NCBI GenBank assembly: GCA_041736565.1
Contig: JBGSTK010000147.1
Location: forward strand, 55,473-119,472
Origin: Phycisphaeraceae bacterium
GTDB taxonomy: Bacteria > Planctomycetota > Phycisphaerae > Phycisphaerales > Phycisphaeraceae
Length of the DNA stretch: 64,000 nt
Direction of reading: 5' to 3'
Numbering within the stretch: the stretch's first letter is position 1; each line of letters starts with the position of its first letter. Below the pieces are notes generated by a model. It ran no database searches and had not been told where the DNA came from. It saw only the letters and a list, made by a program, of their open reading frames with translations. The position numbers and the translations under genes were made by a program. Below, piece after piece: positions 11,972-30,947 of the stretch.

Positions 11972-12025
11972 CGCGCATATCTGTTATGCTGTTTGCCCCA
12001 CCAACCCCCGTTAGGACCCGCTCCA

Positions 12026-12862
12026 ATGCCCCAGAAAACGCAGAATATGTTTGATCTCACTGGCCAAGTGGCCCTTGTCACCGGCGGCGCCAGTGGCATC
12101 GGCAAGGCGATTGCCGCTGCGCTTTCGCAACACGGCGCATCCGTGGCTGTGGGCTCGCGAACCATCGAGAAGGTCGAAAGCGCAGCCACCGAACTCAATC
12201 AGGCGGTCGGCGGCGATGTTCAGGAGCCCCGCGTCGCAGGCGTGGCGTTGGACGTGACCAACGTCGCCAGCGTTGATCGAGCCGTGCGCAAATGCGTGGA
12301 CCTTTTCGGTCGCCTCGACATCCTGGTCAACTCCGCGGGCGTCATGCTGCGCAAGCCGACGTTCGAGCTTGATCCCGCTGACTTCAACCGCATCTATGAC
12401 ACGCATGTCACCGGCAGTCTGCGTTGCGCGCAGGCCGCGGGCCGACTCTTCCGCGAGCAACATGCGGGCTGCATCATCAACCTCGCGTCGATTTCGAGCT
12501 TCGTCGATCTGGTGGAAGTCACCAGTTACGCCTGCGCTAAGAATGCGGTGATGGGCCTGACGCGCAGCCTCGCCAACGAATGGGCCAAGTACGGCATCCG
12601 CACTAACGCCATTGCGCCCGGCTTCGTCCCCACCGACATCAACCGCAAGATGATCGAGAACACCGACCGCGGCCGACGCATTCTGGAGCACACGCCCATG
12701 GGTCGCTTCGGCAGCGCCGAGGAAATCTCTGGGGCAGCAGTCTATCTGGCGAGTCGTGCTGGCAAGTTCGTCAACGGGCACACTATCGTCGTGGACGGCG
12801 GCTACCTCTCCAGCGGCATCGGCGAAAGCTTCGCCCCTTGGGCACGTCCGGCTGAAGCCTGA
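12026..12862 (+). CDS. SDR-family oxidoreductase
   Basis: VALVTGGASGIGKAIA Rossmann motif and YACAKNAV (YxxxK) catalytic motif. The start is ambiguous (11993, 12026 or 12047). Confidence 0.85.
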   Translation: MPQKTQNMFDLTGQVALVTGGASGIGKAIAAALSQHGASVAVGSRTIEKVESAATELNQAVGGDVQEPRVAGVALDVTNVASVDRAVRKCVDLFGRLDILVNSAGVMLRKPTFELDPADFNRIYDTHVTGSLRCAQAAGRLFREQHAGCIINLASISSFVDLVEVTSYACAKNAVMGLTRSLANEWAKYGIRTNAIAPGFVPTDINRKMIENTDRGRRILEHTPMGRFGSAEEISGAAVYLASRAGKFVNGHTIVVDGGYLSSGIGESFAPWARPAEA

Positions 12863-12880
12863 ACTACGACGATCTCCAAA

Positions 12881-12925
12881 AGCCACCAAAAATCGCGCGG
12901 CCCTCGGCACCTCGTCGAGGGCCGC
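12881..12925 (-). terminator. Rho-independent terminator candidate downstream of the ABC ATPase gene
   Basis: 10-bp GC stem gcggccctcg/cgagggccgc (12897-12925). On the minus strand it is followed by gcgatttttggtggctttt. Confidence 0.5.
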
Positions 12926-12972
12926 GGTGCGTTGCGTGGTAGCACGTTGTGCTTTGTGTGGCAGCCCGCCGA

Positions 12973-13743
12973 TCAATGTGCTTCGAGCGTGCCGACTTCG
13001 ATGTCCAACTCATCACGTCGCTGGAGCCGATCCACCTGGCCGTCCTTGATCCACAGCACGCGGTCGGAGTTGGCCAGCATCTTGTGGTCATGCGTGGCGG
13101 TGATGACCGTCACGCCGGTCTCAGTCGAGAGGGCTTTGAGCAGGTTGATGATGTCGCCGCCGGTTTTGAAGTCGAGGTTAGCCGTCGGCTCATCGGCCAG
13201 AAGAATGGCCGGCTCATTGACCAGAGCGCGGGCGATGGCCACGCGTTGCTGCTGCCCACCCGAGAGTTCATCGGGGCGGTGAGTAACGCGGTTGCCCAAG
13301 CCGACCTGCTCCAACACCTTCATGGCCTGCGCCTCGGCATCGACTTCGCTAAGACCCGCAAAAACCGCGGGCAGCGCGACGTTGCGAAGCGCGGTGAGTG
13401 AGGGAATGAGGTTGTATGCCTGGAAGATGTAGCCGATGTAGTTGCACCGCACGAACGCCAATTGACTGGATGTCAGCTTGGTCAGTTCCAACGGGCCGAT
13501 GCTCACGCCGCCTTTGGTCGGGTGATCCAGCGCACCGACGATATTAAAGAGCGTGGATTTGCCTGATCCCGACGGGCCCATGATCGAGAGGTATTCGCCT
13601 CGGAAAATGTCGAGGGTGACATCACGGAGGGCATAGACCTCGCCGTGCTTGATCTTGTAGACCTTCGACACGTTCTTGACGCCGATGAGCTTGGCGCCCA
13701 GCGGGATGAGGTCCTTCATGGAGTTGGCTTGCGGTTGAGGCAT
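12973..13743 (-). CDS. ABC transporter ATP-binding protein (MacB/LolD/FtsE-like)
   Basis: Walker A GPSGSGKST, signature LSGGQQQRVAIARAL and Walker B ILLADEPTANLD. Confidence 0.9.
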   Translation of the reverse strand: MPQPQANSMKDLIPLGAKLIGVKNVSKVYKIKHGEVYALRDVTLDIFRGEYLSIMGPSGSGKSTLFNIVGALDHPTKGGVSIGPLELTKLTSSQLAFVRCNYIGYIFQAYNLIPSLTALRNVALPAVFAGLSEVDAEAQAMKVLEQVGLGNRVTHRPDELSGGQQQRVAIARALVNEPAILLADEPTANLDFKTGGDIINLLKALSTETGVTVITATHDHKMLANSDRVLWIKDGQVDRLQRRDELDIEVGTLEAH

Positions 13744-13795
13744 TGGCGTGAGGTTTCATAATGCGGCCAAGGCCGCGGTTGATCGAGGTCGGGGG

Positions 13796-15922
13796 TCAGA
13801 ACGGCAACTTGAAGACGGCTTTACTCAGGAACGTGAAGCCGATGGAAAGCGTCCCGATGAGGCCCATGCCGCAGGAGAACCCGGCGAAGACCACGGGAAT
13901 GTACTGTCGCCACTTGAGTCCCAGGCGTTTCTGGAAGTAGAAGCGTCCGATGAGTGCGCCGATGAACTGGATGATGATCGAGTGCGGTTCGCTCTGTCCC
14001 AGTCCGCGAACAATTCCGTAGACCAGGAACGTCGGCCAACCCAGCCAACTCATGCAGGTGAACGCAACGGTGCCCAAGCCGAAGCCCAAGCCGACGTAAA
14101 GCGGTCGGAACGCCTTTTCAAAGAGCGAGTAGCCGCCCAGGGTGGACGAGAACACGACCGACTGATTCTCAGCCTGTAATTCCCACATCACCTGTGCGTA
14201 GGGATACTGCGGCCCGGGCACCTGCCCCAGACTCCAGATGAACTGCGCAAAGAGCAGACTCGACAAAATAATGATGGGCGTGAGGATGATCTCGGCTTTC
14301 CAGATCGACCAGAAGCTCGTGCCGGTCAGTTCAGCCTGGCGATAGAAGACGGTCATGCGGCCATAGTCGTGGATTGGCACGGGCAGGAACCACACTGCCA
14401 CGCCCTGATAGCCCGAGAGGATAAACCCGGCTTCCTTTACAAAGGGGATCGACACCACCTGCCCGGCGATGCCTTCGAGTCGCGCGGTGGCGTAGCTGAT
14501 CAGTGGCGTATAGACAAAACCGTAGAAGAACATAACCACCAGCACGCCGGTTTCATTCCATCCGATGAGCGTCATCGACACGGTGATGTAGAGCAGCGTT
14601 GAGACGAGATAGGTGACGATGATCCAGCGGGTCTTGATGTCGCCGCGACCCTCGGGCGTGGTGACCATGCCCTCGGCCTGGACCTCGTCGTTCTTCTTCA
14701 TCTTCCGGAGCTTCAACATGCCTTTGACGACGGCAACGATGCCCGTCACGGCGATGGCCAACGAGATGCCGATGGTGAAGCTGAAGTAGAAATCGACGTT
14801 GTTCTTGAAGATGGTGGCGACTGTGCTGTCGCCGACGTTCCAAGCTTTGAGGACGGTACCGCCTTCAAAACCCAGCCAGGCGACGGCGGGGAAATTGACG
14901 TTGTAGAGAATCGGGTTGAGGATGAAGGTGATGATGAGCCCGATGAACGAGCCGACCATGGCGAAGAACGGCAGGACCATGCCCACCAGGAGTTGCCCGA
15001 GGTCGAAGGTCAGGCCCGTCGCCACCGCGTGAAGCCATTCGCCAGTCTGCGGGGTGAAATCCACCCAGGGAATGGGCAGGATGATGATCGGCTTTCCGAG
15101 CATGGCGCCGGTGATGGTGGGGATACCGAGGTAGACGACGCCAAAGAGCAATCCGATGACGCCGCCGACGGAGAAGACACGCCAGCGCCACGAGCCCTGG
15201 GTAATTTCGTTGCCATCGTCATCGACATTCTTGCGTGATTCCTCTGCCTGTTCTTCGGACAATGCGAGGATGCCCTGGGCGCCGACGGGAGCCATGGGGA
15301 ACGGGAGTCGTTCGACGTCGCTGGCAAGTCGGAAAAGTCCGTAGCCCAGGATCATGTTGTCGATGCGGGCCATGAGCGTTGAGAAGACAACGAGCCCCAG
15401 TGCCGGGAGCCACTCCGCGCGGAACAATGATCGCACCGCCAGTACGTCGGGGTCGTTGGGGGCGTACCAGTGGGGGAGGAACTCGGCGATGCCGTGAGCT
15501 TGGGCGGCATTGGACTGGACGTAGAACTGGTTCCAGAGGATGCCCGAGAAGGGCGAGGCCATTGCGGCAGCCGCCAGATAGAAGAGTGTGAAGATTTCCG
15601 CGTTTTTGAGGGTCTTGTTGGCGCGACGTGCAACTTCGATGAAGAGGATGACCGTCACCCATTTGGCGGCTTCACTCATCGAGCCGGCATGCCCGACTAG
15701 CAGACTCATATACATCGTGCCGGGCACCATCAGCACTGCCACGAACAACGCTCCGAAGAACGCCGGCCATGTGAAGCCGTTCTCGAAAGTCGAGGGCGGC
15801 TGCATCAGGCTGCGGAACTCCTCGAGTTCACGATCCTGTCGCTTGGTGCGGATCGACGCCCCGATATTCGCCGGTTCGCGGCGATGAGGCGGGGTCGCAT
15901 TGGGATTCAGTTCATCAGCCAC
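13796..15922 (-). CDS. Large polytopic membrane protein, possibly related to OPT-type transporters
   Basis: 708 aa with more than 12 hydrophobic segments. ERLPFPMAPVGAQGILAL resembles the OPT-family FPSG motif region. Family assignment is tentative. Confidence 0.7.
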   Translation of the reverse strand: MADELNPNATPPHRREPANIGASIRTKRQDRELEEFRSLMQPPSTFENGFTWPAFFGALFVAVLMVPGTMYMSLLVGHAGSMSEAAKWVTVILFIEVARRANKTLKNAEIFTLFYLAAAAMASPFSGILWNQFYVQSNAAQAHGIAEFLPHWYAPNDPDVLAVRSLFRAEWLPALGLVVFSTLMARIDNMILGYGLFRLASDVERLPFPMAPVGAQGILALSEEQAEESRKNVDDDGNEITQGSWRWRVFSVGGVIGLLFGVVYLGIPTITGAMLGKPIIILPIPWVDFTPQTGEWLHAVATGLTFDLGQLLVGMVLPFFAMVGSFIGLIITFILNPILYNVNFPAVAWLGFEGGTVLKAWNVGDSTVATIFKNNVDFYFSFTIGISLAIAVTGIVAVVKGMLKLRKMKKNDEVQAEGMVTTPEGRGDIKTRWIIVTYLVSTLLYITVSMTLIGWNETGVLVVMFFYGFVYTPLISYATARLEGIAGQVVSIPFVKEAGFILSGYQGVAVWFLPVPIHDYGRMTVFYRQAELTGTSFWSIWKAEIILTPIIILSSLLFAQFIWSLGQVPGPQYPYAQVMWELQAENQSVVFSSTLGGYSLFEKAFRPLYVGLGFGLGTVAFTCMSWLGWPTFLVYGIVRGLGQSEPHSIIIQFIGALIGRFYFQKRLGLKWRQYIPVVFAGFSCGMGLIGTLSIGFTFLSKAVFKLPF

Positions 15923-16020
15923 GCAATCGTCCTCTATTCGTTATGGGCCGCCCACCTCAGACAGCGCCGCTTTACCGATCTTTCCATACCGACTCACCGC
16001 CACACTACCAGCGGCCAACC

Positions 16021-16055
16021 TCTAATCTCTAATCTCTAATCTCAAATCTTCAACC
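16021..16055. repeat. Heptamer microsatellite (tctaatc x3 plus two degenerate units)
   Basis: tctaatctctaatctctaatctcaaatcttcaacc lies in the 150-bp gap between two genes of the cluster. Confidence 0.6.
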
Positions 16056-16072
16056 GCTAACCGCCGATCGCC

Positions 16073-19000
16073 CTAGAAGGACCGGTCGGGCTTCTTCTGT
16101 TCGCTTGCCCCTTGGCCCGGGACTTCTCCGCCCAATTCCTGCAACGTGCGCAGGCGATACTCTTCGATGACTTCCGCTGAAAGCGTGCGCCACAGCAGGA
16201 ACTGCTTGCGCAGGTCGCTCACAAAGACGCGGTTGGCACGGTACCAGTCACCGCTGGCGCCGCTGTCACGATTGGTTTCGATGAAGACTTCGTCAACGCC
16301 GGGGATCTCGGATGGCCGGGCTGTGAGTGCAAATCCCTGAGTCACGCCAAGGTCAAACGGCGCCAAGGCCATGTGGGCATTGAGGCGGAGGTGCCCCGTG
16401 TCATCTTCACGCAGGATGCTGACATTCTGCGCAGCGAAGTGGCCGAGGCCAGCATCGTTGTGAGCGCGGAAGTGTTCAGCCAGGAAGCTCATCACGCCCG
16501 TGATGTCATAAGCACTGACGGTGAAGGGGAAGGTCATGGCCAGCTTGTCGCCTTCGGGCTTAGGCAGTCGCCATGTTCGCGCCAGGCCGGGGTTGGCACT
16601 CTTGGATGCGCGAAGGGCCGGGTAAATGGCGCTGATGAGCACCGTGGACATGACCAGGCCGATGGCAAAGAGCGAGTTGGTGGAGGAGTAGTTGATGTCG
16701 GGCGCCTGGATGACGTTCCACTTGGCCAGTTGTGCTGCAGCCAGCGCCACGGTTTGGGCCAGCAATTGCCCGCCCATGCCGCCGACCACCGCGTAAACCG
16801 CAGCCTCGGCGAAGAACAGGAACCCGACGTGCGCCGGGGCCAGGCCCAGAGCGCTGAAGGTGTAAATCTCTTTCTGGCGATCACTGATGGAGCCCAGCAG
16901 TGTGCCGAAAATGATCAGACCGCCGAGCACCACCGGCACGACAAGCGCTGTGCCGCCCGAGAAGTCCGTGAGGGTCGTGAAGATCATGCGTTGCACGCCC
17001 TGAGGCCCGCGCGCCCAGACGGGCACGTTGACGAGTTGGGCGATGCTCTGACCCATGACCATCGGGTCGCCCTGGGGCGGATAGACGTTTACAACATAGA
17101 GACCGCCACCGGCTTCCCGCACCAGTTCATTGGATGCGATGGCCAACTGGTCCGGCGAGAGATGGACGAAGTCACGCTCGATCTCGTCAGCCTCGACGCT
17201 GTCAGCCTGAATGTTGGCCTCGGTCAGATCAGACGCCGCCGCCAGTGGATTGACCGGCGCGATGGTGCGCCCGTCGAGTTGCTCAAGGCGTTGGAGGTTG
17301 TTGGCCTCGATCACGCCGGCGAACACAGCCTGCTTGCCGTTGATGAGAATCGGGTCGCCGACCTGAAGTTCGAGCTTGTCGCGGATAATCGCTGGGAGAT
17401 AAACCCCGCGATTGTCCAAGGCCTTGACCTTCACTTCGATGTCGTCGCCCGCCACCGCCAGCGCCAACTGGGGCCACTGGCGGAACTCCTGGCTTGACAC
17501 GCCCAGGATGCCTTCGATCCACAGCGCTCGAGGCGAGTCTGTTCGCGCCACGCTGAAGGGGTCCTCATCGGCAGCGGGGCGAATGAGCCACCACTGCGGC
17601 GCCATGTACCCGCCTGGCCCTGCCGTTTCACCCAGAAGCGTCAGGAGGTGAGGCGACAGCGCCTTGTAGTTAAGGTGCCTGACCATGACCGAACCGGCCA
17701 CGTCCTGGTTGACCGGGCCTTCATAGATGCTGCGAACGCCCACGCGATTGCTCACCGAGGCAAAGCACAGGATGGTGAAGGTGAGCATGACCACGGTCAC
17801 AGCCGTGAGGAAGGTTCGGGTAGGTCGGCGGCGCATGGTGCTCATGCCCATCGAAACCGCAGCCAGCAACGTGCCCATCCGCGAGACTTCCGCCTGATGC
17901 ACCGCGGTGCCCTGGCCCTGCATGGCGGCCAGCTCAACTTTGAACTTCCGCACGATGATGTAGATCACCAGACTCGAGAGCAGCAGAATGGTAAACGCCA
18001 GGAAAATGATGATCGGCGTCGAGGCGATGGCAAAGCCCGGGTGCATGAAAAACAGCAGGCCGAAGGTGATGAGAAACACGATGGCAAAGCCCGCGAGCCG
18101 CTGGTAAATCGTGGTGGCCGCTACCAGCAGACGCTCCATGGCAAAGGCAAAGGGGATGGCCAGAAGCAACAGCACGACGATGGCATACACCAGGTCGTCC
18201 ATGGATTGCCGCAGCGGGTTATAGACAGCGCGGGACAGCGCCTCGCTCTGCTTGAAGGCAGCTTGCCGACGCGTCACCCAGTTGTCACCCAGACTGCTGG
18301 TGTCGCCTGCGGATATGGCCGCGGCATGCTCAGCGTTGAGACGATCGGCCTGCTCCAGGCGTTGCTTGGCACGGCTGTGGAGCACCTCCAGATCGGTACT
18401 CGTCACGCCACGCTCGCGCAGTGCCTTAAGCCGCGATTCGTTGAGCTGCCAGAGGTCCGGGGCAGTGTAGCTGTCAAGCAGGGGCGGGAAGCGGATGAGC
18501 GTGTCGAGGATGCCCCGCCCGAAGGGATCATGCTCGACATCTTGAATATTGAGCAGCACCGGGCCCTTGTCCTGGAAGATCTTGATGCGTTCCGGGGGCA
18601 CCAGCGTCGAGGTGTAGAAGAAGGTGAAGTCGTTCTGTTGGCCGTAGAGACTTCGGGCTTCGGGATAGGCGGCATCCGCCGCAGCCGAGAGCACCTTGAG
18701 GGTCGCGGGCGTCGGAGTGTTGACCAGCGATGTGACGACGCTGTGGCCTCGGGCTGGGAAAAGATTGGCTCGCAGCGTTCCGGTGAAGCCGGCACCGATG
18801 GTAATGCCGTTGCTGATGGCGCTGACCTCACCGCGGTAGTCATCCATCAAGGCGCCCAGGAGCATGGTGGCGGAAAAGACGTCCTTGCGTACACCCACGA
18901 GCGGGAATCGCCCGTTGCCATCGACCACTTCCATCACGAAGGGGTCAAAATCTGCCAGGGTTCCGGGTCGCTCGAGGAACTGCCAGTTGTGGGTCTTGAT

Positions 19001-21079
19001 GTTCGTGGCCTTCGGAGCCACAGCCAGCAGCGCGCCGCTGGCGGGGCGATCTTCCGAAAGGCTGCCTGTGATCTGCAGCCCGATATAGTCGCCTGAAGCG
19101 CGCTCGCCGCTCCAACCGGGCCGTTTGGTGCCTGCCAGATTCGAAAAGACGGGGACCAGCGATGTCTCGGGCACATCAGCGGCGTTGGCGATCAGCACGC
19201 GTGCTTCGAGGCTCTGTGCCAGAATGTGACGCCACCGCAGGTTGGCCACCGTGTCAGCCGGATGACCATCGCGCGGGCGACCGTCGAATGCCGTCGCCAG
19301 GGTGACGTTGTGAATCTTGAAAGCACCGGCGACCGTGCCGCTGACGACGAACTTGCCGGGCACGTAGCGGCTGGCCAGCGTGGGATCGGCGAGCCTCTCC
19401 GGCACCAACCCGGTCAAGCCGTCGCTGCGGGCAGCCGCGGCACGGAAGGCCGTGAGCACCCGCGTGTAATAGCCCGGCGAATCGCCCTTGGTGTTCTTGT
19501 CACCGTAGGACCGCTCCGTCCACTCGCCTGCGATCACGCCCCAACCCGGCCCGCGATCCGACAGGTTGTAACTCACATGCAGAACCACCGCAGCCTTACC
19601 CAGACGCTTGCGCAACCCCAAGCCCTGTTGAGCGGAGCGCAGCAGGCCATCAAGTTCCCTGGCGCGATTTTCCAGTCGGGCGATGGCAGCACGCGACAAT
19701 TGGCTGAAGATCTCCTCGCTTACCTCCGTCACTTTGCGGTCATGCAGCGATCGCCGAGCGTTGTCCCAGGCCCTGATCTTGACCATCAATTCCGCCTTGA
19801 GCTCTCCAAGTCGCTTGGCCTCGTCGCCGACGTTATCGAGGTCCCGAGCCGTCAAGCGTGCTTCAACTGCCGCCTGGTTGATGTCGGAGCGAATGAACTC
19901 CGCCTGGCGCTCCAGAAGATCAAGCAACTTGGTGCGGGTGGCGATGCTCGCATCCTCAGGCATCGGCGGCATACGCTTGAGGAGATCGAGCATCTCCGTG
20001 ACGAAGGCCGACTCGGTCTGATATCCCGTCTGACGCGACTCGATATCCGCGACCGATGCGTTAATCACGTCATAGAGGTAGCGGGCGCCCTGGTGGTAAC
20101 GAGCCTGGTTATCCACGAAGGTGATGAGAACATCGCGGCGGGGACGATTAGTCTGGATGTATTTAGCTGTCTGAAGCAGTGCCGCGATGTTGGCTGCGCC
20201 CCTGGCACCGGCCACACCGTGGGGCACGGTCCCGAAGCTATCGTAGTTGACGGCCAGTACCACCACTTCCGGCAGGCCTTTGGTATCCCCCTTTGGAAAC
20301 ACCGGGTCCGATCCGGGCAGGTACGCCAGGATATTCCGCCCCACAGCCTGGCGCCATGCGACGGCTGAGGTGACCGTGGCGTTGACGTTGCCGGGCTTGC
20401 GGAAGTCGAACGCTTTCTGTGCCTCAGGTGAAGCGTAGAGGCGCACCAGGTTCATCGGCACCGTGGCGTGCTTGGGCTGCATCGGCGTGGCGTCGCTACC
20501 CAGGAAGATCACGGCCTTGGCACCCAGGGCAAACGCCTGCTGCCAGGCTTCACCGCTGTCATATTCAAGCACGACGATCGCATCGCGAGTATCGCGTTGG
20601 GCGTATTCCTCCAGCGTACCTCGACCGACATAAACCAGCGGGCCTGTCAGACCACCCTTGGGCGTCGAGGGGGTGATGATGATATTGGGGCGCATCGGCA
20701 GCAAGCTGATCTTCTGACCGCCCACCTCGATGTGGCTCTCGTTGATGACCGTCTGGACCACGGGAATTTCCAGCGACATCACCGATTCGATGCCCATGTC
20801 AAAGAGGCGCTTTTCGATGTAGGCGGCTGCAGCCTGATTCTCGGGCGTGCCCGACAATCGGTGAGCACCGGCGGTCAGGGCCTTGAGGTCATCCTCAAAC
20901 TGTCTGGCGGCGGCGGCATCGATCGCAGCGGCCGCATCGGCGGAACCGGCGCCAGCCGTCTGCCCCTGCAACGCGGCGGGAACGAACATCAGCATCACCA
21001 CCGCCAAAACCGTCGCCAGCAGCGGCCAGGCCCAGCAGCGGGAAGACACAGGCAATATTTGGGATCGCAGCGGGATCAT
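16073..21079 (-). CDS. Giant (1669-aa) FtsX-family ABC permease fused to an N-terminal extracytoplasmic M28-peptidase/PA-like domain
   Basis: The ATG at 21079 overlaps the upstream ATPase stop (ATGA). N-terminal signal/TM segment. PA-like segment GPLVYVGRGTLEEYAQRDTRDAIVVLEYDSGEAWQQAFALGAKAVIF. M28-like segment GRNILAYLPG...VVVLAVNYDS...GARGAANIAALLQTAKYI. Two FtsX modules (MRRRPTRTFLTAVTVVMLTFTILCF...; ...IYTFSALGLAPAHVGFLFFAEAAVYAVVGGMGG...YPALRASKSANP), followed by a C-terminal domain of about 250 aa. Confidence 0.8.
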   Translation of the reverse strand: MIPLRSQILPVSSRCWAWPLLATVLAVVMLMFVPAALQGQTAGAGSADAAAAIDAAAARQFEDDLKALTAGAHRLSGTPENQAAAAYIEKRLFDMGIESVMSLEIPVVQTVINESHIEVGGQKISLLPMRPNIIITPSTPKGGLTGPLVYVGRGTLEEYAQRDTRDAIVVLEYDSGEAWQQAFALGAKAVIFLGSDATPMQPKHATVPMNLVRLYASPEAQKAFDFRKPGNVNATVTSAVAWRQAVGRNILAYLPGSDPVFPKGDTKGLPEVVVLAVNYDSFGTVPHGVAGARGAANIAALLQTAKYIQTNRPRRDVLITFVDNQARYHQGARYLYDVINASVADIESRQTGYQTESAFVTEMLDLLKRMPPMPEDASIATRTKLLDLLERQAEFIRSDINQAAVEARLTARDLDNVGDEAKRLGELKAELMVKIRAWDNARRSLHDRKVTEVSEEIFSQLSRAAIARLENRARELDGLLRSAQQGLGLRKRLGKAAVVLHVSYNLSDRGPGWGVIAGEWTERSYGDKNTKGDSPGYYTRVLTAFRAAAARSDGLTGLVPERLADPTLASRYVPGKFVVSGTVAGAFKIHNVTLATAFDGRPRDGHPADTVANLRWRHILAQSLEARVLIANAADVPETSLVPVFSNLAGTKRPGWSGERASGDYIGLQITGSLSEDRPASGALLAVAPKATNIKTHNWQFLERPGTLADFDPFVMEVVDGNGRFPLVGVRKDVFSATMLLGALMDDYRGEVSAISNGITIGAGFTGTLRANLFPARGHSVVTSLVNTPTPATLKVLSAAADAAYPEARSLYGQQNDFTFFYTSTLVPPERIKIFQDKGPVLLNIQDVEHDPFGRGILDTLIRFPPLLDSYTAPDLWQLNESRLKALRERGVTSTDLEVLHSRAKQRLEQADRLNAEHAAAISAGDTSSLGDNWVTRRQAAFKQSEALSRAVYNPLRQSMDDLVYAIVVLLLLAIPFAFAMERLLVAATTIYQRLAGFAIVFLITFGLLFFMHPGFAIASTPIIIFLAFTILLLSSLVIYIIVRKFKVELAAMQGQGTAVHQAEVSRMGTLLAAVSMGMSTMRRRPTRTFLTAVTVVMLTFTILCFASVSNRVGVRSIYEGPVNQDVAGSVMVRHLNYKALSPHLLTLLGETAGPGGYMAPQWWLIRPAADEDPFSVARTDSPRALWIEGILGVSSQEFRQWPQLALAVAGDDIEVKVKALDNRGVYLPAIIRDKLELQVGDPILINGKQAVFAGVIEANNLQRLEQLDGRTIAPVNPLAAASDLTEANIQADSVEADEIERDFVHLSPDQLAIASNELVREAGGGLYVVNVYPPQGDPMVMGQSIAQLVNVPVWARGPQGVQRMIFTTLTDFSGGTALVVPVVLGGLIIFGTLLGSISDRQKEIYTFSALGLAPAHVGFLFFAEAAVYAVVGGMGGQLLAQTVALAAAQLAKWNVIQAPDINYSSTNSLFAIGLVMSTVLISAIYPALRASKSANPGLARTWRLPKPEGDKLAMTFPFTVSAYDITGVMSFLAEHFRAHNDAGLGHFAAQNVSILREDDTGHLRLNAHMALAPFDLGVTQGFALTARPSEIPGVDEVFIETNRDSGASGDWYRANRVFVSDLRKQFLLWRTLSAEVIEEYRLRTLQELGGEVPGQGASEQKKPDRSF

Positions 21080-21873
21080 TCTTCCATGCCTCCGATGCGG
21101 CCGACCTTGACAGTGACGTTGGCGCGTTCCTCGAGACGCTCGACACGACCATCGCGAATCCACATGATGCGGTCGCAGATGTTGAGCAGACGGTGGTCGT
21201 GCGTGGAGCAGACGATCGTCACGCCCCGTTCCTTGTTGATGCGTTGAAGGATATTCAAGATTTCCTGGCCGGTTTTGAGGTCGAGGTTGGCGGTGGGTTC
21301 GTCACAAAGCAGGATGCGAGGCAGGTTGCACAGCGAGCGGGCGATCGCCACACGCTGCTGCTGGCCGCCTGACATTTCGATGGGTCGGTGGCTCCAACGG
21401 TCGTCGAGCGCGACCAGCTTCAGCAGTTCCATGCCGCGCTTTCGCGCCGCCTCCGGAGGCACCCCGGCAAACGCCATGGGAACGGTCACGTTCTCCAAGG
21501 CCGTCATGTAGCGAATGAGGTTGTAGCTCTGGAAGATGTAGCCGATTTTGCGGCAGCGAAGGAATGCCAGTTCCACTGCCGAAAGCTGTGCCACGTCCAC
21601 TTCGTCAATGAGGATGCGTCCCTTGGTGGGCGAGTCCAACGCACCGATCATGTTGAAGAAGGTGGACTTGCCGCTGCCCGACGGGCCCAGCACGCTAATG
21701 AACTCGCCACGGTAGATCGACGCATCGACGCCGCGAATCGCGTAGGTCGTGGTCTCCCCCATGCCGTAGCTCTTTTCGAGGTTGATCGTGCGAATGATGA
21801 CCGCCTTGTCGGGCGGTGCATCATTCAAAGGCTTCGAGGTTGTGGTGGCGGTTTGGGTCACTTCACTTCTCAA
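21076..21873 (-). CDS. ABC transporter ATP-binding protein (MacB/LolD-like)
   Basis: GPSGSGKSTFFN, MSGGQQQRVAIARSL and ILLCDEPTANLD. TTG or GTG start, exact start uncertain. Confidence 0.9.
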   Translation of the reverse strand: MRSEVTQTATTTSKPLNDAPPDKAVIIRTINLEKSYGMGETTTYAIRGVDASIYRGEFISVLGPSGSGKSTFFNMIGALDSPTKGRILIDEVDVAQLSAVELAFLRCRKIGYIFQSYNLIRYMTALENVTVPMAFAGVPPEAARKRGMELLKLVALDDRWSHRPIEMSGGQQQRVAIARSLCNLPRILLCDEPTANLDLKTGQEILNILQRINKERGVTIVCSTHDHRLLNICDRIMWIRDGRVERLEERANVTVKVGRIGGMEE

Positions 21874-21965
21874 TCTGCATGGGCTGCGGTTTCCGGTTCA
21901 AACTGCCTGCTCTTCTCAACTTCTTCTCAACGTCGCGTGCAACAACGGTCGTTGGCTTTTGGGGA

Positions 21966-23435
21966 CTACTCGACGCGCATGGCTTCCATGGGCGCCAGTC
22001 GTGAGGCGACCCACGCCGGCCAGACCGCGGCGATGACCGCCAGGATGATGCCAGCAATGAGCGAGATCACCCCGCCGATCACCAGTTGACCCAGGACGTC
22101 ACCGGCTCCGAAGATCAATCCGCCGTACTCCACGAGACCGCGCAGCACCGCCAGGACCAATCCCAGCACGACGCCCACGATCCCGCCGAAGAGACCTTGG
22201 AGCATGGCTTCAAAGACGAACATCAACATGACGAAGCCGTCCATGGCACCCAGGCACTTCATGGTGGCGATTTCACTGAAACGCTCGGTGACGCTCATGA
22301 GCATGGCATTGGCCACGCCCACGGCACAGACCAGAAACGAAAGGCCGATGAGATACATAGTGGAGGTGGTGAGGCCCAGGAAGCCCGGGTCTTCACTCGG
22401 CACGGTGCCGCCCAAAGCATTCTGGAGCCGTTGATCCCTGCGGAAATGCCCAGCGACTTCCACCATCCGCTGAGGTTCGAGCGGATTGCCGCCAGCCTTG
22501 CGAATCGTCTCCGCCAGCCAGGCCGCATCGCTCTCGTCGCCGATCCAGTAAAGCACCGCAGCAGTGTTGACCAGCGCCACGGGCGAACCGAGTTTGCGTG
22601 CCACGAGGTTCTTGATTTCCCGGGGATCGATGTCCCGGCCCAGACGCTCGATGTCACGTTGCACGGCTGCGAGTGACGCCAGCGCGGGCAACTCGCCGGG
22701 CTCGACGACGAACCCGCTGTCACGGAGGGTCGCCTCCAACGTCGCTGGTGGCTCGGACATCAGCAGCAGCGGCGGCACGTTGCCGACGTCCTGGCGAACT
22801 TTCACGATGGCTTGACGGTGCCCCTGCTGAACGCGGCGGATCACATCCATGAGCCGGGGAACCTGGACTTGGACCAATTGCTCAAACGCCGCCTGATCGC
22901 CATCGAGCACATGCAGTTTGAGTTGACCCAGGCGATCGTTGAAAAGCTGGAACTCGCGCGGGGCGTTCAACGACGCAGCCACCGCCAACGTGTCCTGCCC
23001 GCCCGTAAGCACCGCACGAGAGGCGGGGATGAGCGTGTCAAAGTAAGCGCCCAGTTCGGCGACGGCTTTGGCGTCCTGTCGCGATTGAGCCAGCGCGGCG
23101 TCGTCGAGATTGGCCCAGCGTTGATACTCCGCGTGCTGTCGGGGCATGTCGCGGTGCAGATTTCGCATGACCACGGAATCAGTATCCGCGGCGGTGAGTC
23201 GGCCGACCCATTGACCAAGGGCACGACTCGGCGCCAGTTCGTCGTAGGCTTGCTGCGTGACGTGCGACGCCAGGAGGCTGTGCGCCAGCACCTGCACCAT
23301 GAAGGCCACGGCCAGCGCCAGGATCGAGACGGTCACCGCTGAGCGGAACATGCGATAGCCCATACCCGCCATGGCCAACTGCAAGCAGCGCCGGGCTCCG
23401 AGTTTGACCTGATCCTGAACAATGATGGGCTTCAC
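21966..23435 (-). CDS. FtsX-family ABC transporter permease with a large (about 300-aa) extracytoplasmic domain
   Basis: N-terminal TM1 (FRSAVTVSILALAVAFMV). C-terminal FtsX domain SVTERFSEIATMKCLGAMDGFVMLMFVFEAMLQGLFGG...WVASRLAPMEAMR. GTG start preceded by aaggaaaa. Confidence 0.85.
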   Translation of the reverse strand: MKPIIVQDQVKLGARRCLQLAMAGMGYRMFRSAVTVSILALAVAFMVQVLAHSLLASHVTQQAYDELAPSRALGQWVGRLTAADTDSVVMRNLHRDMPRQHAEYQRWANLDDAALAQSRQDAKAVAELGAYFDTLIPASRAVLTGGQDTLAVAASLNAPREFQLFNDRLGQLKLHVLDGDQAAFEQLVQVQVPRLMDVIRRVQQGHRQAIVKVRQDVGNVPPLLLMSEPPATLEATLRDSGFVVEPGELPALASLAAVQRDIERLGRDIDPREIKNLVARKLGSPVALVNTAAVLYWIGDESDAAWLAETIRKAGGNPLEPQRMVEVAGHFRRDQRLQNALGGTVPSEDPGFLGLTTSTMYLIGLSFLVCAVGVANAMLMSVTERFSEIATMKCLGAMDGFVMLMFVFEAMLQGLFGGIVGVVLGLVLAVLRGLVEYGGLIFGAGDVLGQLVIGGVISLIAGIILAVIAAVWPAWVASRLAPMEAMRVE

Positions 23436-23503
23436 GCGGTGATTTTCCTTGGACTACGAATGACGTTAAGGGCCAGCCGGGGACTCCGCTTTCGATGTCG
23501 GGG

Positions 23504-23953
23504 CTACGAACCGGCAGCTGCCTCCAGTCGAGCACGCTCCAGTTTCCGTCGCCGACGGCGCGATGGCCCGCCACGACGAGGCGGCGCCTCCGCCGGTCCG
23601 ACGATGACGATCAACCCCCGCTGCGTCAAGTCGCGGAGGAACTGCGTCACGCTCATCCTCGCTTCATGAAATCGCACATGGTGGGCCGCGGCAAAACGCT
23701 CAACGATGCCTTCCACATTGGTCTGCCCGTCACAGAGCTCCCACACAGCCTCACCCAAGGCATCAAACTCCACGCCACGCTCCGACCGAACAGGCAGGAA
23801 GAACGAGAACGGCCGCCGGTGGAACAAGCCCTTCCGCAGTGCCACGTATGCCACCAGCTTCCCGCCCTTTCGCACGACCCGCGCCGCCTCGTTGCGCAAC
23901 GGCACTGCATCGAGGATTTCACCGGGGCCGAGGTTGGAGGGCGTAACGGTCAT
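23504..23953 (-). CDS. PqqD-family (RiPP-recognition-element-like) protein with an Arg-rich C-terminal tail
   Basis: EFDALGEAVWELCDGQTNVEGIVERFAAAHHVRFHEARMSVTQFLRDLTQRGLIVI fits the PqqD pattern (LN..g..iW.l.dG..t..ei...l...y.v....a..dv..fl..L...gli). Confidence 0.55.
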   Translation of the reverse strand: MTVTPSNLGPGEILDAVPLRNEAARVVRKGGKLVAYVALRKGLFHRRPFSFFLPVRSERGVEFDALGEAVWELCDGQTNVEGIVERFAAAHHVRFHEARMSVTQFLRDLTQRGLIVIVGPAEAPPRRGGPSRRRRRKLERARLEAAAGS

Positions 23954-23977
23954 GGTTTTATCTGGCGGTATCCTCTT

Positions 23978-24832
23978 CTATCCACAGCGCACGGCGAATT
24001 CCGTGGGCTCCACGGGGTCCTTGGCGTGCGACAACGTCGTGATCTGATAAACGGCGTGATCCACGGGGCAGTGCCAAACCAGGTCGCGTCGTTGCCGGGC
24101 ACGGCCGATGATTTTGGTGAAGCGAGTTGTCGGTTCCAGGCTCTGACCCAAGCAAGCCTGGTGGCCCCGGTGGCGAAGCATTTCGACCCGATCAGGGGCT
24201 GCGGAAAGGTCCTTTTCCAGCCACGCGTCGGGCTGACCATCATACCACATGTCCGTCGCGCCCAGACGGCGGCAAACCGCCTGCCGTCGCTCATTTTCAA
24301 AGGTAAATCGCGCTTGCCCGGGCTGAATCTTGGCACGCTGCAGCGTCCACCCGCTCGGTGCCACCACATCCAAACCAAACGCACGCCAGGGCGTTGGCGA
24401 ATCCTCTTTAAGGTCCAGCACCTCGAAGCCCGTCAGCACCAAGTCCTCGACCTCCTGCTCTACCCCCAGCGGCCAAGGCAGCACCAGTTCGATGAGCCGC
24501 TTCAGGCTCGGCTCGTAGCGCAAGGCGCGGGTGATGCTGTTCTCATCGCGCGTCCGCCGCAGCGAGCGCCAGCCGTTGACTCGATCCAATTCCGTCACCC
24601 GGGCGTTGGGGCGTTCCTGGGCATCGCGACTCTTGTAGTCGGCGATCATCTGTCCGAGGTCCGCGGCACGTTGCAGCGTTCGCCAAGTCAGTTGCAGACG
24701 CTGGCGGCGACGGTCGATCATCACCAGCGAGCCGGTTTTCGGAGAGACGGCATGGCGCACGATGTCCCACTCGGCGGGCGTTGTCAGCCGCATGCCAAGC
24801 CAGACAATTTCTTGTGTCAGCGCCTCTGCCAT
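23978..24832 (-). CDS. Hypothetical protein (284 aa), probably cytoplasmic
   Basis: Tightly packed between neighbouring genes (gaps of 21-24 nt). Protein-like composition. No family recognised. Confidence 0.65.
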   Translation of the reverse strand: MAEALTQEIVWLGMRLTTPAEWDIVRHAVSPKTGSLVMIDRRRQRLQLTWRTLQRAADLGQMIADYKSRDAQERPNARVTELDRVNGWRSLRRTRDENSITRALRYEPSLKRLIELVLPWPLGVEQEVEDLVLTGFEVLDLKEDSPTPWRAFGLDVVAPSGWTLQRAKIQPGQARFTFENERRQAVCRRLGATDMWYDGQPDAWLEKDLSAAPDRVEMLRHRGHQACLGQSLEPTTRFTKIIGRARQRRDLVWHCPVDHAVYQITTLSHAKDPVEPTEFAVRCG

Positions 24833-24853
24833 ACCGTCAAACGTCCTTACGAA

Positions 24854-27346
24854 CTAGCCCGGGAGGATCGAATAGTTGGGCGGACTTTCACCCATATTGA
24901 AATAGTAGATTGCACCGATGGTCATCCACACCAGCCCGGCGAAAAGCTCACCGGCGATGATGCCGACCATCACCGGTTTGATGCCGTTGAATCCCTTGGC
25001 ACCGGTCAACCGCACAACTGCGGCCTTGATGGCCCAGCCGACGAGGAATGACGCCGCGAATTGGGCAGCCGGGTAGGAGCCCCAGAATACGAAAATCACC
25101 GGGTGCAGTGGCCACCAGGGCAGTCGCAGCCGGGCCACGGTGAATACAAAGACCAGCCCGACTCCCAATGCAAACCAAGGCCATAGTTCGGTAATCCGGA
25201 TCTGTCCCAGCCGATCCAGCCCCGACACCTGGCTGGCGCTTTCCAGGGTGCCCGCCGACGCCATCTGCCCCAATTGCTTGGACAAGGTGTCAAACGGCAT
25301 GGTCGAAACGCTGTTGGACATCCACAGGTCCTGAATATTCATGCCGTAGCGGTACTGCAATGACAGTCCCACAAAAATCGTCGTCGCCAGACCCACCAGC
25401 ACCATGATGCCAATGAGCGGTGCGATCCGTTGCGGTGCGGCGTTGCCCGTGCGTTCGCCGATCTGGAGTCCATTGACCAGGAAGGGCATGATCGCTTCGC
25501 GCGGGTCGATGACGAGCATGACACTGGCAATCGCCATGATGACAAAGGCTGTTGGACCGATGGCCTCGATGCCAATGAACCCCGCGATCATCGCCATGGG
25601 CATCCACCCGGCCTGCACAAAGAAGACACCTGTCTCAGCATTGACGCGGGCGATGACGGTGAAGATAAGCAGCACGATCAGGATCAGCGGCACACCCAGC
25701 ATCCAATCCAGACCCTGGGCCGCCAGCAGCGCCACAGCCCCGACAAACGCCAGCAGCGCCAGTCGACTGCCCCAGACGGAGTACCCGGGGGTTTCGAGCC
25801 GCTTGGGCAGACCCACGGTGGCTTTTATCACGTCCCAGTAATGGCGTCTCCCGGTATAGAGAATCACCATCCCGATACCCACCCAACCACCGAAAAACAG
25901 GAAGTTCTGGTTCTCGGCTCCCGACCAGTCATGCCGCAACGCCACACCGTTGGCCACGAGAAGGGATCCGAAAAACACCCAGATAAACAACGATAAGCCC
26001 AGCGACAGCGAAACTTCCGTCGTCAGGAAGAACGCGAACGCCACCACACTCAGATATATCCTGGGCGAAAAGAGGCCCCAGTTCGAGCTGACTTTGGCAG
26101 CATTGGGGAAAATAGTTCGCAGCGGGCCGAAGTCAAAGGACAGCGGGATTGACAGGAAGAAGCTGGGGTACCAGGCCTTGAGGCCGTTAACCAGGTGAAG
26201 GACCGACACCGCCAGTACGCCGTACCAGAACAGGCGGTTTCTCGCGATATCGGGCAGCCAGTGACCCTTGGTTCGCTGGGCCGACTCCTCGACGAAACGG
26301 GCGATTGGGTACGCCAGCAGTTCGCGACGGGACCATTGTGGATGGACCACCATCACGATACCCAGCGATGCCAGGCCGATGCACGCGGCAATACCTCCCC
26401 ACAAAACGATGGCCGGTGCCCATGCACCCCAAGGCACCTGCATGGGCGGCAACTGCTGCAACCACGTGACGCCCTCGCCCTTAGGCGGGCTTACGCCACC
26501 TTGCATCAGAGGATCAACCACTGCCGTGTCGCCCCGACCACCCAGCAGCAGCACACCATCGCCCTGGGGTTGAGGCAAGATGAACTCGGGAAGTGCCGCA
26601 ACCATCGCAGCCCGGTTGATGCGATGGATGTCATCAGTCGTCAACCGCCGATCGGTTGTCGTCGCCAAATCAGCCTCGGGCTGCCGCAACGTCAGGCCAG
26701 CAAACTCCGGGCGGGGTGAACCGACGCCACGAGCCGGATCGATTTCGAGATAGAGATCGGGACGATTGAGTACCTCGTTAAGGCTGTTGACGATGGTGCG
26801 ATGATGGTCCAGAGGCACATGCCCGGCAGTGACGTTCTGTCGCAATGACCGCTGGGTTTCCAGCGGGAGCACCGACCAGACTCGCCCCGCCAGAGTCGGC
26901 TGGCCAAAGCCCTCGCCCGCCTTGACCAGCGTCGTGGCCAAGCCGTTCCAATTCCGCACGTGGCCCTCGCCCAGCAGTGCCGATCCGCCCGGAAGATAGG
27001 AAAGGACGTTGGCCGCCTGCCAGTTGGCCTTGGTCTTGATGTGGTGGGCCGGCATGGCGAGGTTGCCGGTGAAGTATCGGTAGTAGCCCGACCCCGGCCA
27101 GCCGCAGACCGCCAAACCCAGAGCCGCGATAATCGCCAACTCCGAGGCCTTGAGTGCCAGCCGCGAACTGATCATCGCCAGCAGGGGGTTGAGGACGATC
27201 ATCAACAACACCAGCACGCCGAAAATACCAATGGGCAACAGGTTGCCCACCAGCATCGTCTGACGGATGATCTGGTCGTTGAAATACGTCGCGCTTGCGA
27301 CGAAAAGCCCCAGAAGCACACCGATGATAACCGCGCGAATTGTCAC
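24854..27346 (-). CDS. Large polytopic membrane protein of unknown family
   Basis: More than 14 hydrophobic segments interrupted by a soluble loop of about 200 aa. I prefer the GTG at 27346 (VTIRAVIIGVLLGLFVASATYFND). The ORF could extend to 27508, but that extension is Arg-rich and looks non-coding. Confidence 0.7.
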   Translation of the reverse strand: MTIRAVIIGVLLGLFVASATYFNDQIIRQTMLVGNLLPIGIFGVLVLLMIVLNPLLAMISSRLALKASELAIIAALGLAVCGWPGSGYYRYFTGNLAMPAHHIKTKANWQAANVLSYLPGGSALLGEGHVRNWNGLATTLVKAGEGFGQPTLAGRVWSVLPLETQRSLRQNVTAGHVPLDHHRTIVNSLNEVLNRPDLYLEIDPARGVGSPRPEFAGLTLRQPEADLATTTDRRLTTDDIHRINRAAMVAALPEFILPQPQGDGVLLLGGRGDTAVVDPLMQGGVSPPKGEGVTWLQQLPPMQVPWGAWAPAIVLWGGIAACIGLASLGIVMVVHPQWSRRELLAYPIARFVEESAQRTKGHWLPDIARNRLFWYGVLAVSVLHLVNGLKAWYPSFFLSIPLSFDFGPLRTIFPNAAKVSSNWGLFSPRIYLSVVAFAFFLTTEVSLSLGLSLFIWVFFGSLLVANGVALRHDWSGAENQNFLFFGGWVGIGMVILYTGRRHYWDVIKATVGLPKRLETPGYSVWGSRLALLAFVGAVALLAAQGLDWMLGVPLILIVLLIFTVIARVNAETGVFFVQAGWMPMAMIAGFIGIEAIGPTAFVIMAIASVMLVIDPREAIMPFLVNGLQIGERTGNAAPQRIAPLIGIMVLVGLATTIFVGLSLQYRYGMNIQDLWMSNSVSTMPFDTLSKQLGQMASAGTLESASQVSGLDRLGQIRITELWPWFALGVGLVFVFTVARLRLPWWPLHPVIFVFWGSYPAAQFAASFLVGWAIKAAVVRLTGAKGFNGIKPVMVGIIAGELFAGLVWMTIGAIYYFNMGESPPNYSILPG

Positions 27347-27634
27347 GTCGTTTTCAGCCTCGGGGCGGGGTTGGTGGGGCCACGATAACGATGCGTGGCG
27401 CGACAGCCTAACGGGGGCGACACACGATAACCGATCATCGCGTCTTTTGGAAATCTGACACCGGCGGATCTCCCCCACGGATCGCTGGTGGCCCGCTAGT
27501 CGCCCCACGCCCCCGCCATCGCCTTGCCAATCTAACCCTCTCGATTTGCCCAGCCGTTAATCCGGGCTAAGCTAAAGGGCGCACTCCTGCGTCGTCCATG
27601 CAGGGGGGAAACGAACTTTCACACGGAGATTCCC

Positions 27635-30928: not shown

Positions 30929-30947
30929 GGGTATGCTTATCGGTCGA

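Follow-up and report, generated by a model that had tools for sequence, protein, structure and literature searches.

A stretch of 64,000 nucleotides from contig JBGSTK010000147.1 of a Phycisphaeraceae bacterium (GCA_041736565.1, positions 55,473 to 119,472; further referred to as the window) carries on its minus strand, at 16073–21079, a gene for a protein of 1,668 residues plus stop codon (the giant), in which a degenerate peptidase ectodomain is joined to an FtsX-type permease. The ~920 N-terminal residues of this protein are periplasmic and have the fold of PA-containing M28 aminopeptidases, and its membrane part holds one FtsX unit for coupling to a cytoplasmic LolD-like ATPase. Since its sequence retains neither any of the five zinc ligands nor the general base of the M28 enzymes, the giant cannot be a canonical zinc aminopeptidase. 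Instead, we lean, by a modest measure, towards reading it as the inner-membrane subunit of a MacB/LolCDE-type (type VII) ATP-binding cassette (ABC) system that drives a non-catalytic periplasmic binding module. A preliminary description of this DNA had already suggested that a peptidase-like ectodomain and an FtsX permease were covalently joined, and the single 1,668-residue open reading frame (ORF) bears this out. No report of a bacterial M28 pseudo-peptidase joined to an FtsX-type permease was found in the literature.

The open frame of the giant gene runs from 21163 to 16073 on the minus strand, and the ATG at 21079 is its likely start codon, since it is interlocked with the stop codon of ABC1, the next gene upstream, in a 4-nt overlap (ATGA) and since the relatives of the giant align from that Met. 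At two distant loci, L001 and L086, the ABC1 and giant genes share ATGA in the same way. A database search returned 72 full-length relatives of 1,480–1,913 residues, and their alignment (A1) was the basis of the profile searches and of the ectodomain model. Topology was derived from a hydropathy scan and two AlphaFold2 models (residues 36–965 and residues 950–1668), and comprises a hydrophobic segment (~14–40), a periplasmic module (~44–950), three transmembrane (TM) helices (951–1055), a cytoplasmic loop, the FtsX unit (1056–1496), a cytoplasmic C-terminal domain (1497–1650) and a disordered tail, with eight TM helices in total. The N-terminal hydrophobic segment (residues 14–40, located at 20960–21040 on the minus strand, like all features of the giant given below) was recognised by hydropathy and could be either a signal anchor or TM1; its conservation is 0.11, the predicted local distance difference test (pLDDT) score is low at the start of the model, and a flexible Gly/Ala linker follows.

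The assignment of the ectodomain to the fold of PA-containing M28 aminopeptidases is firm. When searched alone, the window protein scores 17 bits against Pfam Peptidase_M28 (PF04389; residues 265–337, profile positions 9–78 of 193), i.e., below the gathering score of 21.3, and the Pfam PA profile gives no match to it at E-values up to 1. The A1 profile, however, retrieved from the PDB the PA-containing M28 aminopeptidase 2ek8 (E-value of 1e-20), YwaD/BSAP (6hc6; 3.8e-20) and PaAP/keratinase KP1 (7e-9), as well as the pseudo-peptidases nicastrin (1.8e-7), nicalin (7e-6) and transferrin receptor 1 (TfR1; ~1.5e-4). The M28 and PA assignment of the preliminary description thus stands at the level of the family profile, and not at that of single-sequence Pfam scores; a precomputed PF04389 match is on record for about a third of the giant's relatives. 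Moreover, the AlphaFold2 model of residues 36–965, which was built on A1, reached a mean pLDDT of 93.7 and a predicted template-modelling score (pTM) of 0.93, and Foldseek matched it best to 2ek8 (7e-18), followed by BSAP, TfR1, GCPII and PaAP.

Within this ectodomain, the M28 fold begins at about residue 44, and its first part (residues 44–125, at 20705–20950, with R74 invariant) was delimited by profile alignment to 2ek8 and 6hc6. Inserted into it is the PA domain (~126–255, at 20315–20704), a stretch of ~130 residues with a G-[AK]-x-A-V-I motif (GAKAV in the giant, with G186, A187 and A189 invariant) that aligns to the PA regions of the same two structures. The M28 core then resumes with a first half (256–342, at 20054–20314, from profile alignments), which contains three of the five former ligand motifs as well as the segment of about 20075–20269 (roughly residues 271–335) that had been singled out as peptidase-like in the preliminary description. 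According to the secondary structure of the model, the core is subsequently split by an insertion of four long helices (343–493, at 19601–20053) and closes with a second half (494–640, at 19160–19600), which corresponds to the second matched profile stretch and in which T596, P607 and D609 (PxDT motif) are conserved. The PA domain had been placed in front of the M28 core, but it actually lies within the M28 fold, the core of which is further interrupted by this 150-residue insertion. The remainder of the periplasmic module (641–950, at 18230–19159) consists, in the AlphaFold2 model, of a beta-rich domain and long helices running into TM2, and no fold was assigned to it. A word-indexed search for free-standing relatives of the ectodomain (residues 44–342) returned only three fragments of the family itself and one ordinary M28 protein.

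Within the ectodomain, conservation reaches its highest values in the PA domain (0.52) and in the M28 core's first half (0.56) and is lowest in the helical insertion (0.29), which is consistent with the PA/M28 cleft being under functional constraint. Compared with the membrane and cytoplasmic parts (0.63–0.80), the ectodomain as a whole (0.29–0.56) nevertheless evolves faster, as might be expected under the null hypothesis of a passive scaffold, i.e., a spacer, oligomerisation or envelope-tethering module without a specific ligand. The related ectodomains of the transferrin receptor and GCPII, which serve partly in dimerisation, would provide a precedent. We deem such a scaffold very unlikely, though, given that relatives from different phyla have preserved the PA and M28 motifs (with R74, G186, A187, A189, D280 and G331 invariant) and that a 920-residue three-domain module is found in all relatives, at a nearly constant length (1,480–1,913 residues).

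The fate of the catalytic residues was traced with AAP as the reference, in which H97, D117, E152, D179 and H256 bind zinc, E151 is the general base and D99 is the Asp of the HxD motif. H97 corresponds to N278 (HMMER alignments to 2ek8, 6hc6 and KP1; BLASTP and profile alignments to P0218, an active M28 protein), and the H-x-D motif is replaced by N278-Y279-D280 (20240–20248), in which the His ligand is lost and only the Asp (D99, now D280) is retained, being invariant in 72 of 72 relatives. The bridging D117 corresponds to R293 (20201–20203; alignments to AAP and P0218), and its loss is independent of the exact register, since the surrounding SPGARGAAN stretch contains no acidic residue. The Glu-Glu pair formed by the general base E151 and the ligand E152 corresponds to Q325-A326 (20102–20107; profile alignments). 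These three replacements had been noticed by eye in the preliminary description, as a His-to-Asn change in AHxDS, a lost Asp in GAxDNASG and a lost EE pair, and its view of a catalytically dead peptidase is further substantiated at sequence level by substitution of the other two ligands. Specifically, D179 corresponds to N505 (19565–19567; alignment to AAP of profile A4, which covers the M28 core minus the helical insertion; column counts of N 22, D 20 and L 18 in the family), and H256 corresponds by hand anchoring to T582 (19334–19336; family column E 34, T 6), or to G581 if shifted by one residue, with no His present in residues 578–589.

The ligand loss was consistent across four independent alignments, in which the register remained stable, with no shift that would restore the His, Asp and Glu ligands. 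The secondary structure of the model agrees with this register, as N278, Q325/A326 and N505 follow beta strands and R293 opens a helix. Among the 72 relatives, the first ligand position is variable (N 24, H 12, P 10, A 8, Y 8 and D 4 at position 278), position 293 is mostly Arg (61 relatives, with Glu in 8), the general-base position 325 is Gln in 44, His in 13, Glu in 5 and Asp in 4, and position 326 is never acidic. None of them has a complete set of zinc ligands, so that, in canonical terms, the whole family consists of non-peptidase homologues.

In the deep-branching clade P0063–P0071 (e.g., at L002, 10001–15220), the five former ligand positions are occupied by Tyr, Glu, His(-His), Asp and Glu, in the motifs YYDS, GAE, GAHH, LDLTS and DSE, respectively. 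As four of these five residues are metal-capable, this clade might still bind metal via a swapped ligand set. Its gene neighbourhood is reduced to the giant accompanied by an oligopeptide-transporter (OPT)-like gene and/or DUF6785.

A repurposed enzyme, in which the M28 scaffold would have acquired a new, metal-independent or differently liganded catalytic site, would accommodate both the Glu, His, Asp and Glu of P0063–P0071 at four of the five ligand positions, which could still be a metal site, and the conserved polar residues around the old site in the family (D280, which is invariant, as well as R293, N297, D323, H329, H501 and D508). The clade of the window, however, has Asn, Arg, Ala, Asn and Thr at the ligand positions and Gln as general base, position 278 varies freely (N, H, P, A, Y or D), and a hand count shows no more than a modest excess of conserved polar residues around the old site, all of which renders such an enzyme highly improbable to us, if somewhat less so in the deep-branching clade.

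The FtsX/MacB/LolC-type unit of the giant (1056–1496, at 16592–17914) emerged from Pfam, from PDB matches and from the model with Foldseek. Pfam reports one FtsX domain (residues 1378–1493; 35 bits vs. a gathering score of 25.5), and the AlphaFold2 model of residues 950–1668 (pLDDT of 88) was matched by Foldseek to LolC/LolE, MacB and HrtB (E-values of 3e-9 to 3e-6 for these), as well as to YtrF and FtsX, over ~470 columns, which on the model are taken to be TM5, the second periplasmic domain and TM6–8. The unit consists of an N-terminal amphipathic helix (MRRRPTR...), TM5, a 265-residue periplasmic domain and TM6–8. A short helix linking TM6 and TM7 carries the conserved motif DRxKEIYTFSALG (SDRQKEIYTFSALG), and its position and conserved motif suggest that it is the coupling helix.

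Upstream of this unit, TM2–4 (951–1055, at 17915–18229) are strongly conserved, with F977, P1014, F1016 and F1029 invariant and E982, R983 and H1013 nearly so, and together with the hydrophobic N-terminal segment they display an FtsX-like topology. Profile comparison of TM2–4 with the FtsX unit (hhalign, residues 945–1060 vs. 1365–1500) nevertheless returned a probability of 0.1%, and the model shows a 4-residue loop where the coupling helix would sit. Since TM2–4 thus lack both profile similarity to the FtsX unit and room for such a helix, the double FtsX module of the preliminary description is unsupported, with only residues 1056–1496 detectable as FtsX. A second unit was dropped as a candidate on these grounds, as well as on the single Pfam FtsX domain and on the ADOP duplicated-permease model (TIGR03434), against which the giant scores 26.6 bits vs. 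a cut-off of 622.

The cytoplasmic alpha/beta domain (1497–1650) that follows, encoded together with the disordered tail at 16076–16591, is ~155 residues long, rather than the ~250 estimated before, and is highly conserved (38 positions at ≥90%, with P1518, F1519, G1546, P1574, D1576 and G1578 invariant). A HMMER scan of 1.84 billion representative proteins gave 1,336 matches, the best 150 of which are all located C-terminally in giant-family proteins or their fragments; as far as these matches show, the domain is therefore family-specific, in keeping with the earlier remark that it resembles no recognised family. Foldseek yielded weak matches to helix-grip folds of the START/Bet v 1/PYL type (E-values of 0.02–0.05, target-normalised template-modelling scores of 0.32–0.45), and no Pfam or PDB-sequence match to SRPBCC/START/Bet v 1 was obtained at the sequence level, so that this model-based similarity is a lead only.

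The giant is part of a cassette of eight genes, arranged on the minus strand in the order DUF6785/6784, u284, PqqD-like, FtsX489, ABC1, giant, OPT-like and ABC2. ABC1 (21076–21873, its stop codon overlapping the giant start) and ABC2 (12973–13743) are LolD/MacB-type ATPases with canonical motifs that are 50% identical to each other and that score best against LolD, MacB and DevA models, far below the LolD equivalog cut-off. Because the ABC1 gene directly precedes that of the giant and overlaps it by 4 nt, ABC1 is likely the direct ATPase partner of the giant. The ABC ATPase that had been portrayed as hard-wired to the permease thus does exist as a LolD/MacB-type gene directly upstream, with its 4-nt overlap, yet it encodes a separate polypeptide. 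FtsX489 (21966–23435) is a single-unit FtsX permease of 489 residues, whose ~300-residue periplasmic domain had no PDB sequence match. Recent paralogy between FtsX489 and the FtsX unit of the giant was rejected, as their BLASTP similarity is only marginal (E-value of 0.11).

With LolC and LolE as the best structural matches of the FtsX unit, both ATPases scoring best against LolD, and weak helix-grip matches (E-values of 0.02–0.05) in the C-terminal domain, the cassette might be pictured as a Lol-like extraction system that would pull a lipid-anchored or hydrophobic molecule from the inner membrane, with the ectodomain receiving it or handing it off and the C-terminal domain binding a hydrophobic ligand. 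We regard this as quite unlikely, since the scores fall far short of the equivalog cut-offs for LolCE and LolD, the similarity to helix-grip proteins is weak and the cassette has no LolA-like periplasmic carrier.

The dead module might also be an EnvC-like regulator that is driven by FtsX to bind and activate an unlinked periplasmic hydrolase, such as a cell-wall amidase or peptidase. Here too, a type VII ABC permease is linked to a pseudo-enzyme, and the long helical insertion in the M28 core is loosely reminiscent of the coiled coil through which EnvC reportedly binds FtsX. This insertion is, however, the least conserved region of the ectodomain, and the ever-present partners of the giant are polytopic permease-like proteins that would be superfluous to such a regulator. 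Moreover, the conserved cassette is devoid of a periplasmic hydrolase, ABC1 and ABC2 score 191.6 and 196.9 bits against the FtsE family model (cut-off of 264.85), and the FtsX_Gneg model does not match the giant. In the light of this missing linked hydrolase and these FtsE/FtsX scores, an EnvC-like regulator is not favoured and appears unlikely.

The remaining cassette members are two polytopic membrane proteins and two small proteins. The first membrane protein (~700 residues, 13796–15922) is the most conserved protein of the cassette, with 59% mean column identity (25 orthologs; 25% for the giant) and more than 100 invariant residues. While the window protein itself is not matched by Pfam OPT (PF03169), 12 of the 25 orthologs are (best E-value of 4.4e-11) and precomputed 'weak' OPT matches are also on record, by which it may loosely be said to belong to the OPT oligopeptide-transporter superfamily. 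The second, with DUF6785 and DUF6784 domains (24854–27508), probably starts downstream of its first GTG. Kinship between these two membrane proteins was considered and rejected (profile–profile probability of 0.7%), and neither profile found a match among PDB sequences. Furthermore, u284 (23978–24832) is a conserved soluble protein of 284 residues that belongs to no known family; its profile retrieved nothing from the PDB, and Pfam gave only scattered chance matches on 20 orthologs. Its residues W22, G34, D40, A151, W196 and W253 are invariant, and many orthologs terminate in CC. The PqqD-like protein (23504–23953; 149 residues, 43 bits) has a peptide-chaperone fold; u284 always occurs paired with it, and the two look like a peptide-handling couple, near which no precursor-peptide gene was seen.

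In a scan of one genome per species, giant loci were found in at least 561 species-level genomes. The carriers belong to Planctomycetota (Phycisphaerae and Planctomycetaceae), Verrucomicrobiota (Opitutales, Puniceicoccaceae, Kiritimatiellia, Lentisphaeria and Victivallales), Myxococcota (Polyangiaceae), Fibrobacterota (Chitinivibrionales) and Sumerlaeia, and the closest among the loci listed is from a Phycisphaerales metagenome-assembled genome (80% identity). Among the 51 loci with enough flanking DNA, ABC1, FtsX and the OPT-like gene are each retained in 51, ABC2 in 49, and PqqD and u284 in 47 each, and DUF6785 lies upstream on the same strand in 35. At L086, where the giant is only 22% identical, all eight genes are present in a different order (i.e., ABC2, FtsX, ABC1, giant, OPT-like, DUF6785, u284 and PqqD), with the ABC1 ortholog again directly preceding and overlapping the giant gene. 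Deeper branches hold the giant beside DUF6785 and/or the OPT-like gene, as exemplified by L084 (FtsX, ABC, giant, DUF6785, OPT-like), L085 (giant, DUF6785, Rce1-like) and L002 (giant, OPT-like). Retention of this gene set through rearrangement and across phyla argues strongly that the encoded proteins work together. The Rce1-like gene at L085 (16450–17820), which follows the giant and DUF6785 genes, encodes a CPBP-type intramembrane protease.

The giant family amounts to about 1,300 clusters at 50% identity and is without a Pfam or NCBIfam family of its own, its members being named 'FtsX-like permease family protein' or 'hypothetical protein' in databases. No literature was found on the architecture of the giant, on the cassette or on DUF6785.

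In MacB, LolCDE and FtsEX, the TM and stalk helices move upon ATP binding and hydrolysis, by which mechanical work is done in the periplasm (reviewed in part in PMC5985334). If the giant is likewise the inner-membrane subunit of such a system, ATP binding and hydrolysis would move its TM helices and their periplasmic extensions in the same manner, and this movement would change the position of the dead-peptidase module or gate it. The module itself would then be a platform that binds either a ligand in the periplasm or outer leaflet or a partner protein, and would act jointly with the co-conserved OPT-like and DUF6785 membrane proteins. A peptide or the N-terminus of a protein is only a guess at the ligand and the weakest step of this scheme; it is prompted by the aminopeptidase fold, which binds free N-termini, by the OPT superfamily, which transports oligopeptides, and by PqqD-like proteins, which are peptide chaperones.

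Several observations weigh against this reading of the giant as a permease subunit driving a binding module. First, the stretch from the N-terminal segment to the first ectodomain helix is Gly/Ala-rich and of low model confidence, and therefore a single rigid helical connection, into TM2, is left to transmit movement to the ectodomain. Second, the assignment of H256 to T582 falls outside all profile alignments and depends on gap-free hand anchoring on the PxDT motif against P0218. Third, by hand count, 9 of 28 conserved polar residues lie within four residues of the former ligand sites, where ~5.5 would be expected; this clustering is only modest, and no preserved pocket is claimed. Fourth, the conserved cassette contains no periplasmic hydrolase or other periplasmic enzyme, no adaptor and no outer-membrane component. 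Finally, the giant could be either a homodimer or a heterodimer with FtsX489, served by ABC1 and ABC2, as the presence of one FtsX unit in the giant, an extra FtsX gene and two paralogous ATPases fits a LolCDE-like heterodimer and two separate homodimeric systems equally.

Taken a step further, by analogy the whole cassette might constitute a previously unrecognised ATP-driven envelope machine, in which the dead aminopeptidase ectodomain would be the substrate receptor for polytopic partners with peptide or protein cargo, although we consider this extended proposal doubtful. If true, bacteria would use this ectodomain much as nicastrin is used in gamma-secretase or nicalin at the endoplasmic reticulum translocon, with type VII ABC mechanotransmission as the drive. 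The outside effectors known to date for type VII ABC systems (MacB, LolCDE, FtsEX and BceAB) are either a small Porter or Sabre domain or a separate protein such as EnvC. The giant would represent a new build of these systems, with a 920-residue dead enzyme wired into the permease. Its carriers (i.e., Phycisphaerae, Kiritimatiellia, Lentisphaeria, Opitutales, Polyangiaceae and Chitinivibrionales) are environmentally important degraders and poorly studied, not least in their envelope biology.

On the side of ABC2, the cassette is flanked by a strong short-chain dehydrogenase (SDR) gene (11993–12862, plus strand; E-value of 2e-60), past which lies a gene for a 1,397-residue SNF2-family helicase with an N-terminal SWIM zinc finger (7778–11971, plus strand; SNF2-rel_dom with an E-value of 5e-62, Helicase_C and SWIM). 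On the other side, a 605-residue ORF without a Pfam match (27635–29452, plus strand) is followed by an MFS transporter gene (29600–31384, minus strand) with a weak acetyl-CoA-transporter-like match. Two further ORFs were rejected as genes and are probably artefacts of high G+C, i.e., one at 12011–12976 (minus strand), which is antisense to the SDR gene, and one of 518 residues at 23495–25051 (plus strand), which was judged spurious because the conserved genes for u284 and PqqD occupy the other strand there. The 64-kb window yielded neither tRNA genes nor Rfam families above gathering score, and a promoter and terminator scan of 12000–29000 did not rise above the shuffled background.

By descent, the ectodomain is closest to the bacterial PA-M28 aminopeptidases, i.e., those of Aneurinibacillus AM-1 (2ek8), Bacillus subtilis (YwaD/BSAP, 6hc6) and Pseudomonas aeruginosa (PaAP, 8ac9), with which it shares the fold and the domain order of a PA domain inserted in M28, and of which it retains the HxD Asp, the GA...A..LLE helix and the PxDT motif. 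It differs from them by lacking the zinc ligands and the general base, by its 150-residue helical insertion, and by being membrane-tethered and fused to an ABC permease, whereas the aminopeptidases are secreted. By use, it most resembles the eukaryotic pseudo-peptidases nicastrin, nicalin and TfR1, which serve as receptors in membrane complexes. They likewise have dead M28-type ectodomains that are membrane-anchored and have polytopic membrane partners, and the YDxFGvxPxLxxGA loop of nicalin is also found in the giant. They are not orthologs, and bacterial aminopeptidases match the giant far better. Unlike the giant, each of the three is held by one TM anchor only and lacks ABC coupling. What is compared here is an analogy of use, and not evidence of shared function.

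With regard to the membrane part, MacB, LolCDE, HrtBA and YtrEF have the same unit of four TM helices with a periplasmic domain between the first two, a LolD-like ATPase partner and, like the giant, a short helix that links the second TM helix to the third and bears a conserved motif; LolCDE moreover resembles the cassette in that two different FtsX-type proteins are encoded together. The fused forms YbbP and BceB, on the other hand, contain two FtsX units in 10 TM helices (PMC5985334), compared with one detectable unit and eight TM helices in the giant. None of these systems, nor ADOP, has a peptidase-fold ectodomain or the C-terminal cytoplasmic domain of the giant and, by curated sequence cut-offs, the giant is outside the FtsEX, LolCDE, MacB and ADOP families.

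By logic, the closest system is FtsEX-EnvC (as well as FtsEX with PcsB, RipC or CwlO), in which cytoplasmic ATP hydrolysis by a type VII ABC system acts via FtsX on a degenerate, non-catalytic protein with an enzyme fold that is located outside the membrane. The cassette differs from FtsEX by scoring below the FtsE and FtsX cut-offs, by having no linked hydrolase target and by its OPT-like and DUF6785 partners, and the degenerate domain of the giant is of the M28/PA type instead of LytM or CHAP and resides in the same polypeptide as the permease. As a description of how the giant might work, the analogy with FtsEX-EnvC drawn in the preliminary description is nonetheless reasonable.

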